Below, in pieces: positions 2,640 through 64,000 of a stretch of DNA of 64,000 bases; within the stretch, counting starts at the first letter, position 1; each line of letters starts with the position of its first letter. Where the stretch lies: IMG/VR virus record IMGVR_UViG_3300046777_002950; one strand, 5' to 3'. A program made the translations under genes and the position numbers. Source of the stretch: an uncultured virus (IMG/VR IMGVR_UViG_3300046777_002950) (Duplodnaviria > Heunggongvirae > Uroviricota > Caudoviricetes). Below the pieces are notes generated by a model. That model ran no database searches and was not told the origin of the DNA. It saw only the letters and a list, made by a program, of their open reading frames with translations.

Positions 2640-3455
2640 ATGACACATCCACTTTTCTCTGTCAAGTTTTTAATTAAGAAAGGCATTAGCTACTGCAAAA
2701 TGGTAGCTAAAGAGTTAGGTGTTACCCCAGTTGGTGACAAACGCCAGGTAATTACCTGGGCTGACGCTATCGTCAGTCACCAGGCTAATTTACAGCCTGT
2801 AGAAATTCAAAAACAGCAGGTTGTTATTGAGTATAATGATGGTTTGGCAGACTGTGACCTGGCAGGATACAATGTCGTTGATTTGGATGGAAACATCCTC
2901 CGCAACGGCTTCCGCACTTACGCAGCCGCAGAACGCTGGGCTGTTGACAGATTTGAACTTCTTGATCAACAATCAATTGCTCAACAATCTCTTGTTGATC
3001 TCTTGGAAAGTCAAATTCAAGAAGTCACAGAAAAACTTTCAATTGTTGAAATAGACTTTGGTTACGCCGAAGTCTGTCAAGGTAAAACTGTTGTAGCTAC
3101 CATTAGCCACAATTTTGACAACGGAAACTGGGAAGTCCAGTTCTCTGAAACATTTAAAAGCTTTTTGACTTATGCAGAGGCGGAAGCCTTTGCAATTAAT
3201 TACATAGATGAAAGGGGTAGTGGTAGGATTCTACCTATATCCCAGGATATCGAAGAGATATCTTATGGTATTGAAAACAATTGCATTACTGACCCACTAG
3301 GCGAACGGTATACTGTCCGATTTAAAGGACATCTGGCCGGGAATATCTGGCTAGATGTTGATAAAGGGTGGACATTGGGTAGTGACTATTATAACGATCC
3401 AATGCAAGCCGCCAAAGCACTAGTAAATTTAACCAAAAAGGAGTTGGTAGCATGA
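2640..3455 (+). CDS. Hypothetical phage protein
   Basis: 271-aa ORF downstream of TTGACA-N17-TATATT (~2530-2558); internal repeated F(R/L)TYA(A/E)AE motif. Confidence 0.7.
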   Translation: MTHPLFSVKFLIKKGISYCKMVAKELGVTPVGDKRQVITWADAIVSHQANLQPVEIQKQQVVIEYNDGLADCDLAGYNVVDLDGNILRNGFRTYAAAERWAVDRFELLDQQSIAQQSLVDLLESQIQEVTEKLSIVEIDFGYAEVCQGKTVVATISHNFDNGNWEVQFSETFKSFLTYAEAEAFAINYIDERGSGRILPISQDIEEISYGIENNCITDPLGERYTVRFKGHLAGNIWLDVDKGWTLGSDYYNDPMQAAKALVNLTKKELVA

Positions 3456-3619
3456 CAACAACTAAAACGAGGGCTTATCAAGAAGCCTTACAAAATGCAG
3501 GAGTAAATGAAAACTTAGCGCGTAATGCAGCCGTCGTGCTACGCGCTGATGAACTTGGAGAACCCCGTACAGAGCGGGGTCAGAGGGTTATAGACAAATT
3601 ACACAACAGTGCTGAATGA
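3452..3619 (+). CDS. Small hypothetical protein (55 aa, not in ORF track)
   Basis: ATGA overlap with the upstream stop and an AAGGAG RBS; MTTTKTRAYQEALQNAG... Confidence 0.6.
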   Translation: MTTTKTRAYQEALQNAGVNENLARNAAVVLRADELGEPRTERGQRVIDKLHNSAE

Positions 3620-3825
3620 GATTATTCAACTTATGTGAAGAAACTTTGTATATCCACTTTAAAACAGTGGATATATTGAGAATATCAGTAAGCTACCCAG
3701 TAGTAAAAACTTCTACATTGCCATTCTTATTTGAGCAATACAGAAGAACTGGGAACACTGATTATCTCCCTTTTTGAATCATTTAGGCTGGGTGCGATGC
3801 CTTTGTATCCGCACATTTGAAACAA

Positions 3826-4688
3826 TGAATAAAACAATGACTCAAACAATGAACACAGTAGATTTTGAATCGCAAGAATTTGCTCCCATATCTCCATCTG
3901 TGCAACCTTACGCACAGATCATAAACCCAAAGATCACAAAAAAAGGCATAATGCCTTACGGGTTTGCCATAGCAAAAGCTAACGCAGAGTTAGCAAGTTT
4001 TTCCCCCCCTGATGAGTGGGATTTAATAGAACACGAGTTCGCTTCTAAAGTAGTACAACAAATGTACATTACCCTTGCTCCTAAGTTGTTGATAATACAT
4101 AGACTTCCCCTCTATGTATTTTCCAAGAAAGAACTTAAAATAATTGGACAATTAAAAGATTGCCCACAGTTTTGGGACAATCGGGATGAATATAAAACCA
4201 AGAGTTACTTTTGGACAATCATACTTGACAAGGCAAATAAGCCTTGTCACACAACACCGCTGTTGATATCTGCAGGTGGTGCTAGTGGTGCCAGTTTTGG
4301 CCTAGGCTGGCTGCAAAATGCTAGTCCACAAAAGAAAACTTTGCGCGGAGGCTTTTGTTCTGACATGGAAAAAGCTTACGCAGATGCGCGTAAGCAACCC
4401 GTCAAGGTAATGGGAGACTTGTTTCATGCCCACTGCATATATCAGCCTATTTTTGAGGCTGATGAGAGAGGTACGCCACCTAATACTGCGCTGGTATCCG
4501 TAGTAAACCAGTACCTACCTGCAAGTATTGACAATTTAATACCCAATGGTAGTGAGTTGTCGGACTTCATCAAGATAAGCAAAGAATCAGTTAAAGACTG
4601 GGCTCCTCGGATAAAAGATGTACAACCAAAACCAGTTGAATCATCAATAAGTGATGATTACGGATTACCTGATGATTACGGATTTTAA
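3826..4688 (+). CDS. Cyanobacterial/phage protein with an SSB-like acidic-aromatic tail (possible ssDNA-binding or annealing protein)
   Basis: C-terminus SDDYGLPDDYGF; lies in the replication module. The start codon is uncertain. Confidence 0.55.
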
Positions 4689-56217: not shown

Positions 56218-57039
56218 TTAAATCACTTCAACCACAGATGGATACCATTGCAACGACTGGACGGTTTTGTTGTGTCCTTTTGCAGTGTCTAAGATTATTT
56301 GAGAATATTGTTTTCCCTCCTCTGTGGGTAGCCATAAAGGGTTATTATTAGCAGTGTTTTTGACCTGTAAACCCTTTTCCGCTAGTAATGAGTTCATCTT
56401 CTGTGCTGACAACTTCACCCCGGTTCTAGCTTCATATAGTTCCGCTAGTTTGCCTGGTCTGATCAGCTTATCCTCAATGGGAATACTTAGCAGTGACTTT
56501 GATTCTTCCATCGCCGAAGCGAGCGCCGGGTAAATTTTGGCTATTTGGTTGGCCTTGACTGCGGCTTTTAAATTGGGGTGAACGTCAGTACCATCAAGTA
56601 TTAAATCTATAAGTATACTTGCATCTTGGCACAAGCCCACAAGCCCCCTATCTTTAAATTCTTGTTTTTCCCAGCCCACTTGTTTTTGCATCCATACCCG
56701 GACACCAATGGACGTGAAAACAGTATCCACAAGTTCAGCTTGTTTCTTACAATACCTACCAGCTTTATATGCGTAGTATTTGGCTATGACTGCGATTGCT
56801 ACATCTGGTATTCCTGCTTCTGACCATGAGATTTGTTCCGCACACTCAAACCCATATTCAGTAAGCATTTCGGCTAATTTGGAGGGGTTTTGTTCCGCAC
56901 TCTGAAAAGCCGCTCTCAAAGATTTTTCGTCAACATCCATCAGTCTAGCGACCGCACGAATAGAGGCTTTACCCTTACCTTCAGAGTCAACGGTAATTTC
57001 ATTCTTGATTTGTTCAACGATTAATGCTAAATTAGTCAT
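56218..57039 (-). CDS. Phage antirepressor-like DNA-binding protein
   Basis: N-terminal ASIRAVARL HTH-like segment; C-terminal SAQKMN.LL...GLQ...W.PTEEGKQY...LQW. Confidence 0.75.
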   Translation of the reverse strand: MTNLALIVEQIKNEITVDSEGKGKASIRAVARLMDVDEKSLRAAFQSAEQNPSKLAEMLTEYGFECAEQISWSEAGIPDVAIAVIAKYYAYKAGRYCKKQAELVDTVFTSIGVRVWMQKQVGWEKQEFKDRGLVGLCQDASILIDLILDGTDVHPNLKAAVKANQIAKIYPALASAMEESKSLLSIPIEDKLIRPGKLAELYEARTGVKLSAQKMNSLLAEKGLQVKNTANNNPLWLPTEEGKQYSQIILDTAKGHNKTVQSLQWYPSVVEVI

Positions 57040-57246
57040 GACAGATTAACCCGCCTTTATCGGGTAAAATGTTAACCAGTGATACAACCGTTCTGAGTGC
57101 GACTACACTCTTTACGGTGCTGGTTTTAATTATTATAGCACGTAATCGCAAATATAACAATCTTTATTGACGTATTGATTAAAAACCCTGGACTAGCGAC
57201 AATCCAGGGGTTTCGTTTTTGACTAATTAAATCAGTCCTTTACTGA

Positions 57247-57933
57247 CTAATTGACAAGCGTAGTTGTTTCGGGTAAACCAATACCAGGGTAAGCGACACG
57301 CCAAGCATCATGAGAGTATAAATTTTTCTCAACAAATCTTGGGCATGGCACTTTTTTAATTTCCAATCCCATTTTTACGGATACTGCTTTGAGTCTGTAC
57401 CACTTAAACCGAGTTTCTGAAATACCGTTAAATTTGGCTATGCGGACAATAGAGGAATAGTTGAACAATTCATCAACCGCTTCAGATAGGCACTCATTTT
57501 GTTGTTCTAAAAGGATGTTTTGTGCTTCTAGTCGTTCGTTCTCTTCTGCCAACTTTGCGGCTTCTAGCAACGCCTGAGAATAGGTTTTTGGTATTTGGGG
57601 TGCGATCGCTGTACTACCTGTTGACATCAGATTAAAAATATGTCCATCACACCACACAGCGAACTCTGGACTAATCCATCGAGCCAAGTTGATAGCTAAA
57701 CTAGGATGTCCCCAAGTTCCTTGCAAGCTATGATCTCCACCTTGCACTATTTCCGTTACCACCATTTGGTGTGAACGCTCCAAACAGTCAATATATTCTT
57801 TGGTTTTCTGCGCTTTCATGAAAACATCAAGTCGTTTCCCGTTGGCTTGACACATCTGGGTAAGGTTGATAAACCCGTTTTGACTGCGAGAAATTGTTTG
57901 TCCGTTATAATCAAAAACTGCTAGATTATTCAT
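57247..57933 (-). CDS. KilA-N domain antirepressor-like protein
   Basis: GFINLTQMCQANGK, QGTWGHPSLAINLARWISPEFAVW, PKTYSQAL. Confidence 0.92.
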   Translation of the reverse strand: MNNLAVFDYNGQTISRSQNGFINLTQMCQANGKRLDVFMKAQKTKEYIDCLERSHQMVVTEIVQGGDHSLQGTWGHPSLAINLARWISPEFAVWCDGHIFNLMSTGSTAIAPQIPKTYSQALLEAAKLAEENERLEAQNILLEQQNECLSEAVDELFNYSSIVRIAKFNGISETRFKWYRLKAVSVKMGLEIKKVPCPRFVEKNLYSHDAWRVAYPGIGLPETTTLVN

Positions 57934-58077
57934 GTGACCTCGGTATTAGGTTACTTCCCCTGCGGACTTGGTGTTATCAGCACCATCCGGCGAGGGGATT
58001 ACATAGTAATTATAACACATTTTATAGGCACTCAGGACACTTGCAGTTCTTTTGAGGCAGTTGTTTAAATCAATTTT

Positions 58078-58782
58078 TCATTTAACAGCGACTAATCCCA
58101 TAAAATTAAACCATCTCCAAAAACAATCAACAAACTTAAAACCACAATTACATAACAATTCTTCATTCCATTTAGCTGTTACAGGAACTAAAACTCCCTC
58201 TAGGCTTAATCTTTTTCTCTCTATCTCGTAAATAGAATAACCGTTTTTATGTTTTAGGTTATAGTAATTTTCTGTCATCAAACTATCAAGATTTGCGCTA
58301 TTGCCAATGACTTTTTCAACCAAAATAATTGCACCGCCTGGGGACAAGGAATCATAGCATCTTTGTAAAACTTGCAGCCGATATTCAATAGGAATAAACT
58401 GTAAGGTTAAGACGCTTAAAATCACGTTACAGTTTTGTATATCTACCCAATCTTTCCGCAAATCAATATTATATAATTCAATGTTTTTCTGATCTTTGAA
58501 CCTTTTCTGACTTGCTATTATCATAGGTTCGCTGCACTCAATTCCGTGATAATAACAATCCTTCCCACAAATAGCTGCAATTCTATCGATTTGATCACCA
58601 CGGCTACAACCTAAATCTAGTAGATGTCCTCCTGTTTTTAAGTAACTACAGGCAATATCAGTAACAGCTTTTCTCATTACTTCGTACTGCGGAATTGATC
58701 TAGCAAGCATATCATCAAAGATGTCTGTTACTGACTCATCAAATTCCCATTTATCTTTTGACGGTACATGGTAATTGTTCAT
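58078..58782 (-). CDS. cmoA: Carboxy-S-adenosylmethionine synthase (CmoA-like)
   Basis: WEFDESV..FDDMLARSIPQY, DLGCSRG, TLQF, PGGAIILVEK, K..NGYS..EI..KR.SLE and FNF all match the CmoA family pattern. Confidence 0.88.
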   Translation of the reverse strand: MNNYHVPSKDKWEFDESVTDIFDDMLARSIPQYEVMRKAVTDIACSYLKTGGHLLDLGCSRGDQIDRIAAICGKDCYYHGIECSEPMIIASQKRFKDQKNIELYNIDLRKDWVDIQNCNVILSVLTLQFIPIEYRLQVLQRCYDSLSPGGAIILVEKVIGNSANLDSLMTENYYNLKHKNGYSIYEIERKRLSLEGVLVPVTAKWNEELLCNCGFKFVDCFWRWFNFMGLVAVK

Positions 58783-59819
58783 AATTTCTCAAGTATTTCT
58801 AGCTGAATTGTTTTAGCAATATGCGACATCATAACAGGCGGTACAGCCCGTCCTAATCGTTCCCATTGTTGATCGTAACTACCAGATAAAATAAAATCAT
58901 CAGGAAATGCACAAAGTCTTTTAACTTCTACTATTGATAAAAGGCGACATTTTAATGGATGCATTACCTGACCGTTTGATCGGCATTGACTCTGACCAAT
59001 TGTATTTACAGGTTTGGATGGATTGGGACGTTTTAAAGAAAAACGTTCTGGATGCGCTCCTCCTAGTGGTGTTTCGTGCCATTGCTTTCCTATTTTATAT
59101 TTAGTAATGTCTGTTTCCGGTTCTAATACTATTTCTAAATTTTTGATCGCATCATTAAACGAGTATTGGTAACTTAGCGGTTTAGGATGTACAGGTTCTA
59201 ACTTTAAATCATTTCTCACACCCACAAAAATAGTCCGTTGTCTCATTTGTGGAACGCCCAACCATTGAGCATCTAAAACTTTACATTTGACATTATACCC
59301 ACAGCCTTTCAGTGCTTTTAATATTTCTAGAAAGTAACCTTTTGCAGTTCCTTTTATTAGTCCAGATACATTTTCCGCCACAAATACTTTGGGCTGAGTT
59401 CCTTTAATCAATCTTGCGTATTCAAAAAATAAGTCATCTACCCTTTGCTTTGTGTCTGAATACTTCTTAACTTTTGCCCACCCTGCTTCACGTTTACCAG
59501 CAGTCGAAAAAGCAGCGCATGGTGGCGAACCATCAAATATATCAATTTCACCAATTCTTAAACCAGTTGCTTTTAAAATATCTTCTGGTTGTACTAATCG
59601 AATATCTCTAGTATCCAGAATGGAATTAGTATGATTAGCTCTATAGCACTGTTGAGCAGCAGGTATAAACTCATTAGCCCATAAAACTCGATAACCTGCC
59701 ATGCGATAACCCAAGCAAGATCCTCCTGTTCCGCTAAAAGTAGAGACTACATTGAATCCGTTCCAAGGAATGTTTTTAATATCTTCCATAGAAGGGACTT
59801 TATACGCTGGTTTATTCAT
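58779..59819 (-). CDS. C5-cytosine DNA methyltransferase-fold enzyme, predicted carboxymethyltransferase
   Basis: FSGTGG, GSPPCAAFS, ENV, PQMRQR, RLCAFPDDF; motif X reads LGRAVPP instead of xGNAVPP. Confidence 0.9.
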   Translation of the reverse strand: MNKPAYKVPSMEDIKNIPWNGFNVVSTFSGTGGSCLGYRMAGYRVLWANEFIPAAQQCYRANHTNSILDTRDIRLVQPEDILKATGLRIGEIDIFDGSPPCAAFSTAGKREAGWAKVKKYSDTKQRVDDLFFEYARLIKGTQPKVFVAENVSGLIKGTAKGYFLEILKALKGCGYNVKCKVLDAQWLGVPQMRQRTIFVGVRNDLKLEPVHPKPLSYQYSFNDAIKNLEIVLEPETDITKYKIGKQWHETPLGGAHPERFSLKRPNPSKPVNTIGQSQCRSNGQVMHPLKCRLLSIVEVKRLCAFPDDFILSGSYDQQWERLGRAVPPVMMSHIAKTIQLEILEKL

Positions 59820-60352
59820 TTTCCACCGCTCCACTTATATCCACATTTAGGGCATTCGTGATCTGTTTCTATGCTTTCATCATATTCTTTAAAGTCACCC
59901 GATGTCCGCTTACTATCATCATTATTATTATCTTCCTGTTCATCATCCAAAAAACTTAATTCCAATTCCCCAAAGCCCGTTAAACCCAGATCAAAATCAC
60001 TATCCTGTAGAAACTCAAAATCCAGTTTCAACATATCAGGATCAAATCCAGTATTCATGGTCAGCTTGTTGTGTGCTAAACGATATGCCACTTTTTGAGC
60101 ATCTGACAGCCCGGTAACTTGAATTACGGGAATTACAGCATCACCCCGTTTCTTGGCTGCTAAAAGCCGACCGTGACCTTCTAATATTTCACCATTCTCA
60201 TCTACTGCCACCGGGTCAAGGAATGTAAATTCTTCTATGGAATTAGCTATCTGTTCAATGTGGGAATCAGGGTGCAACTTAGCATTGTTCTCATAAGGAC
60301 TTAGACGCTCAATGTCCCATTCTTCTATCTGACTACGCTTGATTTTGCTCAT
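59816..60352 (-). CDS. ParB/Srx N-terminal domain protein with a C-terminal zinc ribbon
   Basis: PYENNAKLH, SIEEF.F..P, GHGRL.AA, YRLAHNKL, CPKCG. Confidence 0.9.
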   Translation of the reverse strand: MSKIKRSQIEEWDIERLSPYENNAKLHPDSHIEQIANSIEEFTFLDPVAVDENGEILEGHGRLLAAKKRGDAVIPVIQVTGLSDAQKVAYRLAHNKLTMNTGFDPDMLKLDFEFLQDSDFDLGLTGFGELELSFLDDEQEDNNNDDSKRTSGDFKEYDESIETDHECPKCGYKWSGGK

Positions 60353-60644
60353 TAAAGTACCACTTATACGCTTTATTCATTACACGCTGTATCATATCAC
60401 GTTTATCGTCACTGAGTCCACTAAACTCAATTAATTCATCCACTGTTTGCTTGGGAATATCCTTCAGTAGTTGCCCCAAAGCAAAACCCACAAATGCAGT
60501 ACCTAAAATTTCAATTCCTGTAAAATCTAATTGCACCAACTCATTACGTAGTAAGTGGTAATGAATTACTCTGTACAAATTTTCTCCATGTTCAATAGCG
60601 ATCGCGCTATATCCAGTAAAATCAAAAATCTTAAATATCTTCAT
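60333..60644 (-). CDS. STAS-like (DUF4325-type) protein
   Basis: GENLY..I, VQLDFTGI....AFVG.ALGQL; likely ATG at 60644. Confidence 0.7.
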   Translation of the reverse strand: MKIFKIFDFTGYSAIAIEHGENLYRVIHYHLLRNELVQLDFTGIEILGTAFVGFALGQLLKDIPKQTVDELIEFSGLSDDKRDMIQRVMNKAYKWYFNEQNQA

Positions 60645-61188
60645 CTTCACCTCTGCTTGGATCAATAATTTGGTAGCCTTCTCTAGATAGCTTATCAGCA
60701 GCTGCGTTGACATCAACAAAGTATTTAATTCCTCTAGTTTCATTGATGGCACTTGTTGACCGCTGCAAGGCTTGCGACCATTGATTTGTTTCAGGTGCGC
60801 TATGCAGAGAAATTGCTTTCTTTCTTTCTTCTCCTGTTAGTTCTAAATCCTCTGCCAATTGCCTAGCTTTAACTTCAATTATTTTAGCTACATAATCCCT
60901 AGCGAGTTTGTGTACTTTGTAGTTTTCAATGACAATTTGAGAGAGTTCATCTGATATTTTCTCAGATGCTTTTTGTATAGTTTTAACTTGAATAGTTGTC
61001 TTGAGGGTGTCTTGGTACTGTCGCCTTTGGTCTACCCATAATTCTCGTCTTACCCATACCTCAACAGTTCCCTTACCTAAGCCAGCCTCGACAGCCAGTT
61101 TTCTAATACCTATATCCTCTTCACTTTCAACGTAGCGACGGCGACACTGTTCTTTAGTCCATGGTTTTGGTAGTTTTTCCCATTTCAT
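60631..61188 (-). CDS. Probable terminase small subunit
   Basis: N-terminal HTH (YV......IRKLA...G....V..W.RRE.W..QR) followed by coiled coil; next to ParB and a methylase. Confidence 0.65.
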   Translation of the reverse strand: MKWEKLPKPWTKEQCRRRYVESEEDIGIRKLAVEAGLGKGTVEVWVRRELWVDQRRQYQDTLKTTIQVKTIQKASEKISDELSQIVIENYKVHKLARDYVAKIIEVKARQLAEDLELTGEERKKAISLHSAPETNQWSQALQRSTSAINETRGIKYFVDVNAAADKLSREGYQIIDPSRGEDEDI

Positions 61189-61305
61189 AGCATTAAAAAC
61201 TCAATATTTTTATTTTTAATAGTTACATATAATTGATTGTTATGTACAATATCAGTAGAAATATTTTGATAAATTTTGTTGAATATATAGCCCGCTTAGA
61301 CGTGA

Positions 61306-61635
61306 TCAAGGTCTAAATATTTGAATCAAACTCAGTTCCAATTTAAACACTTTCTCACTTGATGGTGTCCACTTAAACGTCTCGCAACGGTACAAAGTGG
61401 AATTAAAGTAAAAAGGCTTACCTAAATTATTAGTTAAAAAAGTATCAATCTCTGAATAAGTAAATAAACTATCAATGGTCAGGGTTAAAGTCTGCGTACC
61501 AACTACTTGGTTAAGTTGGTTTCTATTCCCTTTCTCATTCACGCCACCCTGGTAGTTTTGAGACAAGAAAGTGGCCTCAAAACTTATGGCATTATCCCAA
61601 CTGATTTTGAGAGAACTAGGCGCGTTTGGGAACAT
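61306..61635 (-). CDS. Second gpM-like minor tail protein
   Basis: Similar to 13995..14333: IDTFL...GKPFYF, YRCETF.W, FKLELSLIQIF. Confidence 0.65.
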   Translation of the reverse strand: MFPNAPSSLKISWDNAISFEATFLSQNYQGGVNEKGNRNQLNQVVGTQTLTLTIDSLFTYSEIDTFLTNNLGKPFYFNSTLYRCETFKWTPSSEKVFKLELSLIQIFRP

Positions 61636-61749
61636 ATGATAAAGCTGTCAGTAATGCTGACAGCACCCTTAATATACCGAGCTTGACATTATTATTATAG
61701 CATAAAACCTTTGTTTTAATTGCTTTTAATGTCATATATTTGGTTTAAA

Positions 61750-61830
61750 TGCTATAATATTTGAACCTAGTCGCGCGGTGATGCTGGCAACATCAAGCCA
61801 CCACTAGGAGTAGGTCCAACATACCCACGT
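61750..61830 (+). promoter_or_regulatory. Extended -10 promoter plus a structured 5' leader of the Cas12 gene
   Basis: TGCTATAAT (61750-58), then a CCTAGT...TGATG-CTGGCAA-CATCA...ACTAGG stem-loop. Confidence 0.6.
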
Positions 61831-61842
61831 ATCTATTTTACC

Positions 61843-63606
61843 ATGAAAACTTTTGAATTTAAGCTTGACCTTACGGTTGCACAAGTACAAACGATTAATC
61901 AATGGCTAGACAAACTCAAGTGGGTTTGGAATACAGGGCTGTCGCTCAAACTAGCAGGAAGACAGAAATATTATAGAGAGAAAGAAATAGGCGATCGCGT
62001 CATTCCCAGTGGTGTGGTTTTGCAGTGGAAATGGCGAAAAGTTGTTACTGAAGATAAAAAAGGTAAGTCTACTGAGAAGTGGGAGAAAGTCCGCTTAGTC
62101 GGTACAGGTGTCATCAGACCTAAAAGCGGTCATCCTTACTGTGAAATTAGACAACACTTAAATATTGAAAACCCTGATAAATATGGACAATGTGAATTTT
62201 ATAGGAGTGACAATATTCCCGACTTTATGGCAGATGTTCCCACTAAATTTAAGGCAGGGGTAATTGATTCTTTAAAGAAATCATGGAAAGCTTACGTTAC
62301 TCCAAAACACCCCGGTAGAAAGCCAAAATTCAAAGGGAGAAACGATAAAATCAAGTCGCTTGTTAATCTCAATGCTGGGGGTTTATCCAAAGAACTAAAA
62401 CCGGAAAAAATACCCGGTTCAAATAATGGTTATGTCCAGTTCCCCAAGCTTGGTAAAATTAAAGTTAAAGGATTATTTGATAGATATGACTGGCAAGAAT
62501 GGGGTCCTGCCAGAATAGTTAAAGAACCATCAGGTTACTATCTTCATGTATGCGTTGATATCCCCAATGACCCATTACCAAAATCTGATAAAGCAGTAGG
62601 AATTGATCCGGGTTTACTATCAATTATTACCACAGATCAGGGTAAAGAAGTTGAGCCGCCTAAGCTATTTAGGAAACAACAAACTAAGCTAAGACGATTA
62701 CAGCGTAAAGCATCTAGGCAGAAGAAAGGAGGATGTAATCAGAAGAAAACTTATCAAAAAATAGCCCTACACCATGAGAAGATCCGCCGCAGCCGCAACG
62801 CATTTAACCATAAGTTATCTACTAAAGTTGTGCGTGAGTATTCTGGGATTGTGATGGAAGACTTAAAGATACAAAACCTGAACCGTAAGCCCAAAGCCAA
62901 GAAACGTGAGGACGGCAATGGCTATGAACAAAACGGTGCAAAACGTAAAGCCGGGTTAAACAAAAGTTTTGCCGATTCAGCACTGGGTGATTTAATCAGT
63001 AAGATTGAAACAAAGTGCAAAGATACTGATAGAGAGTTTGTAAAAGTTGCGGCACACTACACTACGGTTGACTGTTCAAAATGTGGTGCTAAAATAAAGA
63101 AAGCATTGAGCCAAAGAACTCACCGCTGTACAGAATGTGGTCACACTGAAGGACGTGATTCTAATGCAGCCAAGAATATTTTACTCAAAGGCAAAAAGCA
63201 ATTACAAACAGTGTACCGCGCTTGGGCGTGGGAACATGGGGAAACCCGAAAGCCTGGCTCTGATTCCAATACGGAATGTCACCAGGAAGGTGTGCAAACA
63301 CCACCGGAGGATGGATATTCCTCCCAATTAAACCCCGAAAGGGGAACTCAGCGCGGAAGGGGGGATATAAAAACCTCTAAAACCGTGAAAACAACCCCAA
63401 AGGTAGACACCGTAAGCAACCTGAACCTTGACAATTTACCAAACACCCGCGCACCTTACCCAGTAAGCATTTCAGCTAATTCAGCGAAAACTCAAAAGCC
63501 TGGAACAAAGAAAAATAAGAGATCCGCGCAATCAGGGGATGAAACTTTTACACAGCTTACGATCTGGGATACGGCTGGTGAAACCGACCTTGGGGAACTG
63601 GGTTAA
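61843..63606 (+). CDS. TnpB-like compact type V CRISPR effector (Cas12f / V-U-like)
   Basis: RuvC I VGIDPG, RuvC II VMEDL, zinc finger CSKC...CTEC, RuvC III RDSNAAKNI; directly abuts a CRISPR array; the stop codon lies in repeat 1. Confidence 0.9.
   Translation: MKTFEFKLDLTVAQVQTINQWLDKLKWVWNTGLSLKLAGRQKYYREKEIGDRVIPSGVVLQWKWRKVVTEDKKGKSTEKWEKVRLVGTGVIRPKSGHPYCEIRQHLNIENPDKYGQCEFYRSDNIPDFMADVPTKFKAGVIDSLKKSWKAYVTPKHPGRKPKFKGRNDKIKSLVNLNAGGLSKELKPEKIPGSNNGYVQFPKLGKIKVKGLFDRYDWQEWGPARIVKEPSGYYLHVCVDIPNDPLPKSDKAVGIDPGLLSIITTDQGKEVEPPKLFRKQQTKLRRLQRKASRQKKGGCNQKKTYQKIALHHEKIRRSRNAFNHKLSTKVVREYSGIVMEDLKIQNLNRKPKAKKREDGNGYEQNGAKRKAGLNKSFADSALGDLISKIETKCKDTDREFVKVAAHYTTVDCSKCGAKIKKALSQRTHRCTECGHTEGRDSNAAKNILLKGKKQLQTVYRAWAWEHGETRKPGSDSNTECHQEGVQTPPEDGYSSQLNPERGTQRGRGDIKTSKTVKTTPKVDTVSNLNLDNLPNTRAPYPVSISANSAKTQKPGTKKNKRSAQSGDETFTQLTIWDTAGETDLGELG
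63215..63350 (+). ncRNA. Putative tracrRNA/omegaRNA-like scaffold overlapping the effector 3' end
   Basis: Five consecutive hairpins, three with GNRA loops, plus CAATTAA(A)CCC complementary to the repeat's GGGTTAATTG. Confidence 0.6.
63351..63576 (+). promoter_or_regulatory. Putative CRISPR leader inside the effector ORF
   Basis: GCGCGG (63351) and CCGCGCA (63447, 63524) boxes directly before repeat 1; resembles Nostocales chromosomal leaders as I recall them. Confidence 0.55.
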
Positions 63607-64000
63607 TTGCAAGTTATCCCGATATTAACGCAAGTATGGTGAAACCGACGGTGAAACCGACCTTGGGGAACTGGGTTAATTGCAAGCAGAAATAAGATCA
63701 CCAACTTCATTCAGAAAATTGAGGTGAAACCGACCTTGGGGAACTGGGTTAATTGCAAGCGAGATACAGTTTATTTCTAAGATGAGAGGTATCTAGGTGA
63801 AACCGACCTTGGGGAACTGGGTTAATTGCAAGATTCAGATTGTCAAAACCAATATCGGCAACATTGGTGAAACCGACCTTGGGGAACTGGGTTAATTGCA
63901 AGACTTACTTTGATAAAAAAGGCACTGAAAAAAGAGGGTGAAACCGACCTTGGGGAACTGGGTTAATTGCAAGAGATTCATCAGGCTTCTTTGCAGCATT
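63577..64000 (+). CRISPR. CRISPR array, 37-bp repeat GGTGAAACCGACCTTGGGGAACTGGGTTAATTGCAAG, at least 6 repeats (truncated by the window end)
   Basis: Identical repeats at 63577, 63650, 63723, 63796, 63866 and 63937; spacers of 36, 36, 36, 33 and 34 nt plus a partial sixth. Confidence 0.98.

Follow-up and report, generated by a model that had tools for sequence, protein, structure and literature searches.

In the stretch of DNA analysed here, the window of 64,000 nucleotides, the gene of a TnpB-like Cas12 effector of type V-U2 (C2c8) runs into a CRISPR array (Table 1). The curated C2c8 model NF038192 (NCBIfam) matches the effector with a score of 484.2 bits (cut-off 350, E 4.8e-145), the Pfam domains OrfB_IS605 and Cas12f1-like_TNB, the zinc-ribbon/TNB insert, are present, and the RuvC triad D255, E339 and D439 is invariant in the effector alignment (A2). 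The first-pass annotation of this DNA had described an ORF which runs on past RuvC-III and stops within the first repeat. This was borne out: 149 residues lie between the RuvC-III aspartate and the C-terminus, and the stop codon (TAA, 63604-06) falls within repeat 1 (63577-63613). The end of the window lies within the array and only the upstream side was visible for the search for cas genes, where none was found by Pfam among the eight ORFs upstream of the effector.

Among 50,697 phage records only that of vB_AphaS-CL131 (MG209611) was matched, by protein as well as by DNA, and the 2.4-kb DNA query, which includes the spacers, gave no spacer match in the same records. A scan of genome contigs with the single effector protein returned one locus only, L016, which is carried by Dolichospermum circinale AWQC310F. 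The effector of the window has 78% identity to its CL131 counterpart, and the CL131 locus also shares a homologous P1-P5 RNA (see below), the side on which the array lies and a similar phage neighbourhood. It differs in having another repeat (36 nt) with a long matching anti-repeat and a tail interrupted by a TGA and a frameshift. The carrier of the locus is a CL131-like cyanophage with a type V-U2 (C2c8) CRISPR-Cas system. In the available text of PMC6293099 the CL131 protein is assigned to V-U2, and it is reported that no tracrRNA was found.

Table 1. Features of the effector gene and array, in order of their position in the window
Feature	Position	Strand	Remarks
Promoter-like site before the effector gene, ATGTCA-18-TATAAT	61729..61758	+	10/12 matches; consensus match only
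Effector ORF, 587 aa, type V-U2 (C2c8) TnpB-like Cas12	61843..63606	+	RuvC D-E-D triad intact
ORF-internal stretch of 21 nt, complementary to repeat positions 7-27	62434..62454	+	unexplained side feature
ORF-internal sigma-70-like promoter (predicted), TTGACT-16-TAAAAT, TG before -10	63068..63095	+	10/12 matches; predicted start near 63102
RuvC-III motif DSNAAKNI	63157..63180	+	
P1 hairpin, CCGCGC, loop UUGG, GCGUGG	63216..63231 (63216-21 with 63226-31)	+	invariant in 12 close sequences
P2 hairpin, GGG-GAAA-CCC	63238..63247	+	in-frame deletion of P2 in L037
P3 two-part stem, outer CCUGG/CCAGG, inner AUUCC/GGAAU	63253..63286	+	
P4 hairpin, GGUGU-GCAA-ACACC, GNRA loop	63289..63302	+	3 pairs changed on both sides
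P5 hairpin, GGAGGA-UGGAUAU-UCCUCC	63306..63324	+	6/6 pairs changed on both sides; loop UGRAHAU kept
Short candidate anti-repeat CAAUUAA(A)CCC, pairs with GGGUUAAUUG of the repeat	63325..63335	+	10 bp (7+3) plus bulge
Hairpin CCCC-GAAA-GGGG	63333..63344	+	confined to the window clade, L016 and L035
Tail-coding middle, also array leader by position	63345..63576	+	nucleotide-level constraint, pS 0.051 vs 0.211 in core
Basic patch of the tail, KKNKR	63508..63522	+	
QLTIW codons, beta-clamp-binding-like motif	63553..63567	+	residues 571-575 of 587
CRISPR array; repeat of 37 nt, 6 copies within the window	63577..63973	+	ORF stop within repeat 1

A conserved five-stem RNA within the 3' end of the gene

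The 3' end of the effector gene encodes a conserved RNA of five stems, P1-P5 (63216-63324), on the plus strand. The first-pass annotation had named hairpins in this region and had suggested covariation across homologues as a check. Every one of the hairpins was found where it had been placed, and the covariation, computed on 12 homologues, strongly supports the five-stem RNA. The fold of 63200-63360 obtained with ViennaRNA has an energy of -62.1 kcal/mol (z -4.52), and none of 200 shuffled sequences folds as well. In the alignment of the 12 distinct homologous sequences (A3), 98.7% of 373 cells are paired, compared with 34-47% in slid controls, and 14 of the 34 pairs are changed on both sides, with 0/500 shuffles as high; in P3 the double changes comprise four of the five inner pairs and one outer pair. 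An alignment of 21 sequences, which was fitted to the RNA model R1, gives 97.6% paired cells and 21 double-changed pairs out of 30 (0/500 shuffles), including three of the six pairs of P1. The stem of P4 is longer in relatives. A long-range stem, CCGCGCU/AGCGCGG, which appeared in the first ViennaRNA fold and competes with P1, was dropped because its 3' strand is missing in L008, L012, L001 and L034; the local P1 covaries instead when more distant sequences are included.

Synonymous divergence is six-fold lower in P1-P5 (pS 0.035) than in the core of the gene (pS 0.211), and the substitutions are distributed evenly among the three codon positions in P1-P5 (28/18/20), versus 233/75/899 in the core. 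No relevant family was returned by Rfam for 60500-64000 at E up to 1.

Complementarity between CAATTAA(A)CCC (63325-35) and the 3' half of the repeat had also been claimed in the first-pass annotation. The pairing is present, with 7+3 bp and one bulge against GGGTTAATTG of the repeat; nevertheless, by itself the duplex is no better than chance, as 193 of 500 shuffles are as good, and only the homologous position in relatives gives it meaning. When the 40 nt past P5 were paired with the repeat of the same locus, L008 gave -33.2 kcal/mol with 0/500 shuffles as good, followed by L012 (1/500), L001 (3/500), L037 (3/500) and L034 (5/500), and L016 was not above chance (76/500). The homologous position is thus significant in five of the seven repeat types tested, the repeats themselves differing between loci. 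In the L060/L064 clade, which is only 30% identical, a 22-bp anti-repeat lies within the tail ORF, and the anti-repeats of L008, L012, L001 and L060 are long (about 22-30 bp). Duplexes between repeat and tail in L138, L123, L131, L040 and L023 were no better than those of shuffled regions. A second GCAATTA (63198-204), which lies 5' of P1 and is paired to the repeat in a 549-nt fold, was considered as an anti-repeat; it was rejected because it is unchanged in relatives although the repeat changes.

Both hexamers of the predicted ORF-internal promoter are unchanged in 9 of 11 aligned homologues; the exceptions are L012, where one reads TAGAAT, and L037, where both are altered. Metatranscriptome contigs from three runs (three studies) start at 63114-63116, about 20 nt past the promoter-like site, and extend to 63606 or, in X5, into the array. 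These contigs give neither strand nor transcript ends, and RNA libraries can contain DNA; contig depths (e.g., 182 vs 4.4 for X5) cannot rank the parts of the gene, and uncovered parts mean nothing. Where contigs stop at 63606, the most likely cause is a break of the assembly in the repeat. Taken together, the promoter-like site and the contigs give weak support for expression.

The same RNA in relatives

TnpB omegaRNAs lie on the strand of the nuclease ORF, with a scaffold that overlaps its 3' end and the guide at the 3' side of the scaffold. A comparable placement was found in relatives of the window locus. The RNA model R1 matched 13 further loci with E values of 5e-12 to 3e-7 and finds the scaffold in 21 loci at E < 1e-4, including loci that are only 30-39% identical; weak matches (the L123 group, L138/139, L129/130 and L024, E 0.03-0.5) were left out. 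In 20 of the 21 matches the RNA lies on the ORF strand, at or past RuvC-III. In L023 the RNA is intergenic, between the stop codon and the array.

Relative to RuvC-III, the position of the scaffold is the same across three kinds of relatives, which differ in the number of repeats. In L043 and L049 only one repeat-like unit follows the scaffold, at a distance of about 250 nt, an arrangement like that of an omegaRNA; L053 has two repeat units; and L051 and the window have full arrays, the window with about 250 nt from the scaffold to repeat 1 and at least six repeats. The pattern fits an omegaRNA scaffold reused in place as a tracrRNA, as the first-pass annotation had proposed. The part of that proposal which stands is a real, conserved plus-strand RNA at the same site in single-unit, two-unit and array loci, together with an anti-repeat to the own repeat in five relatives; the idea itself is not new. 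The general scenario is already in print (PMC10691335, in the text available), and the TranC transposon-CRISPR intermediates of Jin et al. (Cell, 2025), as they are cited in the available parts of PMC13565253 and 10.64898/2026.03.27.714800, embody the same evolutionary idea, with the omegaRNA functionally split into tracrRNA and crRNA. The graded series reported here, from one repeat to two to an array within one RNA family, documents, in natural loci, how an omegaRNA gives way to a tracrRNA and a crRNA.

The likeness to TnpB with its omegaRNA (IS200/IS605, e.g., ISDra2) consists in a scaffold that runs on the ORF strand and overlaps the 3' end of the nuclease gene, and in the TnpB domains common to both. 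The window differs in that an array takes the place of the transposon end and the single guide, in the distance between scaffold and first repeat given above, and in that no tnpA-like ORF was found by Pfam in the 5 kb upstream of the effector.

The protein tail and its clamp-binding-like end

The reading frame across the RNA gene is open in every lineage examined. Frame 1 has no stop in 14 of 14 distinct tails, while the other two frames have 2-14 stops, and indels between clades preserve the frame, the terminal motif being reached by every one of the tails between 97 and 150 aa. The ending QLx[ILFVM][WF] was found in 29 of the 31 distinct tails of at least 80 aa versus 3 of the 68 shorter ones; its Q and L are invariant in 19/19 aligned tails, which were chosen after the motif had been seen. 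The motif codons vary synonymously, with two codons for Gln (CAG/CAA) and four for Leu (CTT/CTG/TTA/TTG), and the remaining positions show conservative I/L/F and W/F swaps. In a sister clade of nine loci, a long open tail is found without the QL motif, frame 1 being stop-free in 9/9 and the basic patch present in 8/9; therefore, the motif is not the sole reason for the upkeep of the frame.

The first-pass annotation had considered the tail probably dispensable, a view not supported in that form: the results point both ways. In CL131, a phage that has been isolated and is viable, a TGA occurs 30 codons past the RuvC-III aspartate, followed later by a frameshift, and the L007/L115 variant has lost the tail through a deletion of 167 nt (63410-63576 missing), so that tail and motif can evidently be lost. 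Within the window clade the pN/pS of the tail is 0.6-1.0, a value that indicates no purifying selection at the protein level, with pS itself depressed there. On the other side stand the frame, open in every lineage checked, and the ending shared by nearly all long tails. A whole-protein AF2 model built from a seven-row alignment has a mean pLDDT of 44.9; as the whole model is poor, the low confidence in the tail says little on disorder specific to the tail.

Beta-clamp-binding motifs follow a consensus of the QL[SD]LF type, a pentapeptide carried on a flexible terminus, and the end of the tail resembles such a motif. In a complex prediction, the DnaN of genome G001 and a 45-aa V-U2 tail from the same genome scored 0.66, a mark that was attained in 116 of 157 solved complexes and in 2 of 215 mismatched pairs, and the best of three controls scored 0.00. 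The predicted interface joins tail residues 29-39 (SFTQLTIWDTA) with residues 179-184 and 377-382 of DnaN, in runs with custom alignments, at least 60% contact agreement and a partner pLDDT of at least 44 but under 50. This pass may stem from the memory of solved clamp-peptide structures in the predictor. Gomez et al. (2014; PMC3971601) described, for the OrfB of cyanobacterial IS200/IS605 elements, a putative C-terminal beta-binding motif and, in the text available, named QLSLF as a clamp-binding motif; apart from this paper, none that connects TnpB or Cas12 with a clamp-binding motif was found among the literature matches listed. The OrfB proteins agree with the effector in the kind of protein, the phylum, and the place and form of the motif (QLSLFD.., QLNLFD.. 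and QLSIFDLLK* in OrfB versus QLTIWD.. and QLTIWDLLA* here). They differ in that the OrfB motif, as far as the available text goes, was found by pattern search only and was linked neither to CRISPR arrays and phages nor to an overlapping guide RNA gene.

Three probable roles for one stretch of DNA

We consider it probable that the last ~400 nt of V-U2 cas12 do three jobs, as tracrRNA scaffold, clamp-tethering tail and array leader. The P1-P5 RNA would be the tracrRNA scaffold of the effector, derived from a TnpB omegaRNA and transcribed from the ORF-internal promoter, and the bases directly past P5 would pair with the repeat in its 3' part, so that CAAG and the spacer remain as the guide. The tail may serve as a flexible linker with a basic patch, weakly constrained in sequence, and its terminal QLTIW could anchor the nuclease to DnaN where DNA is being replicated. 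By its position the same stretch would be the leader of the array, with the ORF ending in repeat 1.

Other readings of the RNA have to be weighed. The scaffold might act in cis, as the omegaRNA-like 5' part of one long transcript of scaffold, leader and array with no separate tracrRNA, the repeats being recognised by fold-back or by processing of the precursor. This agrees with the failure to find a plus-strand terminator-like site in 63100-64000, with the unbroken RNA-library contigs, and with the single unit past the scaffold in L043 and L049, which is placed as the guide of an omegaRNA would be. However, one scaffold would be unable to serve six or more repeats in cis, the long anti-repeats of L008, L012, L001 and L060 resemble those of trans-acting tracrRNAs, and transcript ends are invisible in the contigs; we regard a scaffold acting in cis as unlikely. 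A helper RNA transcribed from the minus strand is far less probable again. The complementarity of repeat and anti-repeat is strand-neutral if both are transcribed the same way, and the contigs are strandless; the stems of the 12-sequence alignment nevertheless hold 24 G-U cells, which would turn into A-C mismatches on the minus strand, versus a single A-C cell the other way, and this favours the plus strand. The minus-strand fold of the same region is also weaker (z -1.99, 7/200 shuffles as good), the four GNRA-type loops occur on the plus strand only, and the promoter-like site also lies on that strand.

For the tail, the competing account is that it is a functionless translated by-product of the RNA gene and that its QLxxW ending reflects a signal of the leader at the nucleotide level. 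The pN/pS of the tail and its natural truncations in CL131 and L007/L115 are in line with this, as are the Cas12n tails, reported as dispensable in heterologous assays in the available text of 10.64898/2026.03.27.714800 and PMC12721324, and the identity of CAGCTTACGATCTGGGAT at 18/18 nt between the window and L024, whose protein is only 37% identical. The absence of stops in frame 1 from both the 14 tails and the nine sister-clade tails, set against the stops in the other frames of the 14-tail set, the frame-preserving indels, and the upkeep of the motif through synonymous and conservative changes speak against it, and we hold the by-product account to be doubtful.

Preferring the reading with three roles, we put forward with some reserve, and at somewhat less than even credence, a wider proposal: V-U2 Cas12 and the related TnpB-like nucleases of cyanobacteria and cyanophages may be tethered to the clamp by a C-terminal peptide whose frame threads their own guide-RNA gene, and their cutting may thereby be aimed at replicating DNA. 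One stretch of DNA would then be subject to constraints from RNA structure, protein frame and array leader together. If clamp tethering is true, it would mean homing to the sister copy in the transposon ancestor and the targeting of competing or host replicons in the phage. A real link to the clamp would also tie RNA-guided nucleases to the replication fork, which matters for their behaviour in native hosts and for truncations made for genome editing. The usual view of such tails as junk is revised, as the frame and the clamp-binding-type end are conserved.

To our knowledge, few catalogued type V subtypes are left with neither guide RNA nor activity known, V-U2 being among them, and no description of a V-U2 tracrRNA was found among the literature matches listed for V-U2/C2c8. 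The subtype now has a covariation-backed candidate scaffold, its strand, a likely promoter and an anti-repeat position, which together are enough for the design of a single-guide RNA and a test of the enzyme.

The layout of an overlapping tracrRNA is already known for Cas12n, just as the clamp motif of cyanobacterial OrfB has been on record since 2014. According to the available text of PMC12216341, Cas12n (type V-N, formerly V-U4) is likewise a small TnpB-like Cas12 in which the tracrRNA region and the 3' end of the ORF, encoding a disordered C-terminal stretch, overlap, and its guide scaffold has about five stems plus a repeat:anti-repeat stem (PMC12216341, 10.64898/2026.03.27.714800, in the parts available). 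The window protein differs in being C2c8/V-U2 by its NCBIfam match, in an ORF that continues through the leader into repeat 1, and in a tail that ends in the conserved QLx[ILF][WF], a motif not found described for Cas12n in the same available texts.

A side feature of the effector gene is the 21-nt stretch within the ORF that is complementary to the repeat (Table 1). It is absent in L016, L008, L012 and L001 and confined to the window clade, and its complementarity score was reached by 1 of 300 dinucleotide shuffles.

A probable RNA scaffold in the V-U2 effector gene

The multiply coded 3' end of the Cas12 gene, the overall observation of the first-pass annotation, has been confirmed. What is new is a V-U2 scaffold with support, its plus strand, a likely promoter and the position of the anti-repeat, together with a graded set of natural loci, from those with a single repeat to those with a complete array, and the conservation of the tail frame and its clamp-type ending. 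The 587-aa ORF scores 484 bits against NCBIfam NF038192 ('type V CRISPR-associated protein C2c8', cut-off 350) and is also matched by Pfam OrfB_IS605 and Cas12f1-like_TNB. The RuvC residues D255, E339 and D439 are invariant across the effector alignment, whose most distant members are 32% identical, and the TAA of the ORF (63604-06) falls within repeat 1. The identity to gp061 ('transposase') of Aphanizomenon phage vB_AphaS-CL131 is 78% for DNA and protein alike; in the accessible text of its report, the CL131 locus was classed as type V-U2 and no tracrRNA was found there (PMC6293099). The minus-strand genes upstream, among which weak Pfam matches to ANT/antirepressor-like and ParB-N were also obtained, fit a CL131-like cyanophage genome.

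Features of the effector locus and its surroundings
Feature	Coordinates	Strand	Details
Phage-like genes upstream of effector	56218-61635	-	KilA-N, C-5 cytosine methylase, SAM methyltransferase, DUF4325
V-U2 effector, 587 aa	61843-63606	+	ORF call
Sigma-70-like promoter site	63068-63095	+	TTGACT-16-TAAAAT, TG before -10; inside ORF
Predicted scaffold stems P1-P5	63216-63324	+	P1 63216-31, P2 63238-47, P3 63253-86, P4 63289-302, P5 63306-24
QLTIW codons	63553-63567	+	
CRISPR array	starts 63577	+	37-nt repeats, 6 copies before window ends; from sequence

Each hairpin of the first-pass annotation was found where it had been placed, and the fold of 63200-63360 amounts to -62.1 kcal/mol (z -4.52, equalled by 0 of 200 shuffles). 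Homologous loci were drawn from viral contigs, one Dolichospermum genome and metagenomes, and a six-helix structure was written down by hand for alignment A3, which holds 12 distinct sequences of the scaffold stretch. Covariation across homologs, proposed earlier as a check, was borne out: 98.7% of 373 cells are standard pairs, both sides have changed in 14 of 34 pairs, and none of 500 column shuffles reaches any of four measures, while sliding the partners by 1-3 columns brings pairing down to 34-47%. All six pairs of P5 show both-side changes, giving three stem sequences round one conserved loop, as do four of the five pairs in the inner part of P3; P1 and P2 are without variation within these 12 sequences.

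The reverse strand of the same region gave a fold z of only -1.99. The stems contain 24 G-U cells against one A-C cell, and the loops GGAA, GAAA, GCAA and GAAA are GNRA on the plus strand only; the scaffold RNA is therefore placed on the ORF strand. Substitution patterns were compared in six window-clade sequences (15 pairs). In the gene core pS is 0.211 and pN 0.018, with third codon positions taking 899 of 1207 substitutions; in the P1-P5 segment the values are 0.035 and 0.034, with 28/18/20 substitutions per codon position, and in the remaining tail pS is 0.05-0.09. The segment 63209-63256 is identical in all nine sequences of the locus alignment A1 bar one C/T difference, in CL131, and the RuvC-III codons immediately upstream vary at wobble positions. 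In these sequences, constraint in the scaffold segment acts on nucleotides rather than protein.

Within 61600-64000 the promoter site ranks among the top two matches, and both its hexamers are kept in 9 of 11 homologs; no terminator-like site was found downstream of it on the plus strand. The stretch is partly present in 20 runs, 16 of them recorded as RNA, and contigs were placed from four metatranscriptome runs, each belonging to a different study. Two contigs cover 63114-63606 (X20) and 63116-63606 (X18), a third (X5) covers 63114-63409 and is then joined straight to 63577 and the array, as in a 167-nt deletion variant of the L007 type, and the fourth (X13) starts at 62744. These contigs, which carry neither strand nor true ends and come from RNA libraries where DNA is possible, hint weakly at an RNA that would start near 63102-63114.

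Anti-repeat complementarity

Repeats among relatives are of at least seven kinds, ending ..TTG(G)CAAG or a near variant (..CTGGTAAG in L012). The 40 nt directly 3' of P5 were paired with the repeat of the same locus and compared with 500 shuffles.

Duplexes between the 40 nt 3' of P5 and the repeat of the same locus
Locus	Energy (kcal/mol)	Shuffles as good
L008	-33.2	0/500
L012	-28.4	1/500
CL131 (L001)	-26.8	3/500
L037	-22.6	3/500
L034	-19.0	5/500
Window	-17.2	193/500
L016	-14.2	76/500

The anti-repeat of the first-pass annotation is thus right in position by homology but weak in itself, because the window clade retains only CAAUUAA(A)CCC against GGGUUAAUUG. A 22-bp anti-repeat, likewise within the tail ORF, is present in the L060/L064 clade (~30% identical). 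A second GCAATTA at 63198-63204, upstream of P1, is complementary to TAATTGC of the repeat and pairs with repeat 1 in a 549-nt fold; it was rejected, as it shows no change in step with the repeat in relatives. Elsewhere inside the cas12 ORF, 21 nt at 62434-62454 (VQFPKLG codons) are complementary to repeat positions 7-27, with a score reached by 1 of 300 dinucleotide shuffles. All 5 loci of the window clade have this stretch, though L003 differs by one change that may be compensating, and it is absent from L016, L008, L012 and CL131.

Protein tail and QL motif

The tail, the protein stretch after the RuvC-III Asp (149 aa in the window), had been proposed to be dispensable, a claim that holds only in part. 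Natural losses speak for this: CL131 has TGA in place of the window's CGA 30 codons past the Asp and a frameshift later, and in L007/L115 the deletion of 63410-63576 (167 nt, between scaffold and repeat 1) has removed the tail end and most of the leader. The pN/pS of the tail, 0.6-1.0 in the window clade, points the same way, and Cas12n tails were dispensable in heterologous assays, according to the accessible portions of two reports (10.64898/2026.03.27.714800; PMC12721324). Against dispensability stands the conservation of the frame and of its clamp-type ending. Each of the 14 distinct tails (51-150 codons) is stop-free in frame 1 and has 2-14 stops in each of frames 2 and 3, a pattern shared by 9 of 9 distant-clade tails. 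Among 99 distinct tails recovered by a C-terminal query, QLx[ILFVM][WF] occurs within the last 22 residues in 29 of the 31 of at least 80 aa, both exceptions being truncated variants, and in only 3 of the 68 shorter ones. The motif persists through synonymous codons (Gln CAG/CAA; Leu CTT/CTG/TTA/TTG), which suggests that selection acts at the peptide level. The distant clade is open-framed without a QL motif, so that the motif is not the sole reason for the open frame; its ORF ends within repeat 1, and 8 of its 9 tails carry a basic patch.

In sequence, the QL motif resembles the bacterial beta-clamp-binding pentapeptide. For genome G001, a complex was predicted between DnaN and the 45-residue tail of the V-U2 protein encoded in that genome, with alignments supplied for both partners (A4, A5). 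The score was 0.66, against 0.00 for the best of three controls, with contact agreement between runs of at least 60% and partner pLDDT of at least 44; in the reference sets, 116 of 157 solved complexes attain the score mark, as do 2 of 215 mismatched pairs. The predicted interface joins SFTQLTIWDTA of the tail to DnaN residues 179-184, 255-260, 333-335, 359-361 and 375-382, which we take to be the canonical peptide cleft. The prediction supports binding of the tail peptide to DnaN, though its score may owe to clamp-peptide structures already solved and memorised by the predictor. For OrfB of cyanobacterial IS200/IS605 elements, Gomez et al. 2014 (PMC3971601) had described a putative C-terminal beta-binding motif, identified there by pattern search, the examples in supplement file 2 including QLSLFDPTLFGG and QLSIFDLLK, both at the very end, and QLNLFD... 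Tethering of the V-U2 nuclease to the clamp would be a testable hypothesis.

From omegaRNA-like layouts to arrays

A search with R1, the covariance model of P1-P5, recovered all close loci and 13 more distant ones as full-length matches (E 5e-12 to 3e-7). In 12 of these 13 the RNA lies at the 3' end of a TnpB-like ORF, eleven times within the open frame and, for L059, 333 nt past the callable ORF. The V-U2 protein of L023 stops 18 residues past RuvC-III, and at this locus the RNA sits between stop codon and array; the RNA is therefore what stays constant, and its overlap with the ORF is what varies. In an alignment of 21 sequences, fitted to the model and biased towards the structure, 97.6% of cells are paired, with both-side changes in 21 of 30 pairs, three of them in P1 (0 of 500 shuffles as high).

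Repeat-like units follow the scaffold in the distant clade, one each in L043 and L049, two in L053 and at least seven in L051; these natural loci form a series that runs from an omegaRNA-like arrangement to a tracrRNA with an array. The earlier reading that an omegaRNA had turned into a tracrRNA is supported in its RNA part, though it is not novel in kind: it agrees with the published scenario, as far as the accessible text goes, in which omegaRNA segments give rise to arrays (PMC10691335) and with the functional splitting of omegaRNA of Jin et al. 2025 (as cited in PMC13565253, 10.64898/2026.03.27.714800).

The units lie at approximately 3632-3700 in L043, 3648-3790 in L053 and 1170-1210 in L049. 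Past the unit, L043 and L053 have similar sequence, both starting TTAC..TTA.TTGA, as if a guide or insertion site were conserved. The L024 relative (37% identical), whose full tail ends QLTIWDLLD, is without an array of its own; next to it, at 3340-3390 and 3560-3840 of the oriented locus, are one isolated degenerate repeat, an ORF resembling cas2 and an array with repeat end ..GGGATTGAAAC.
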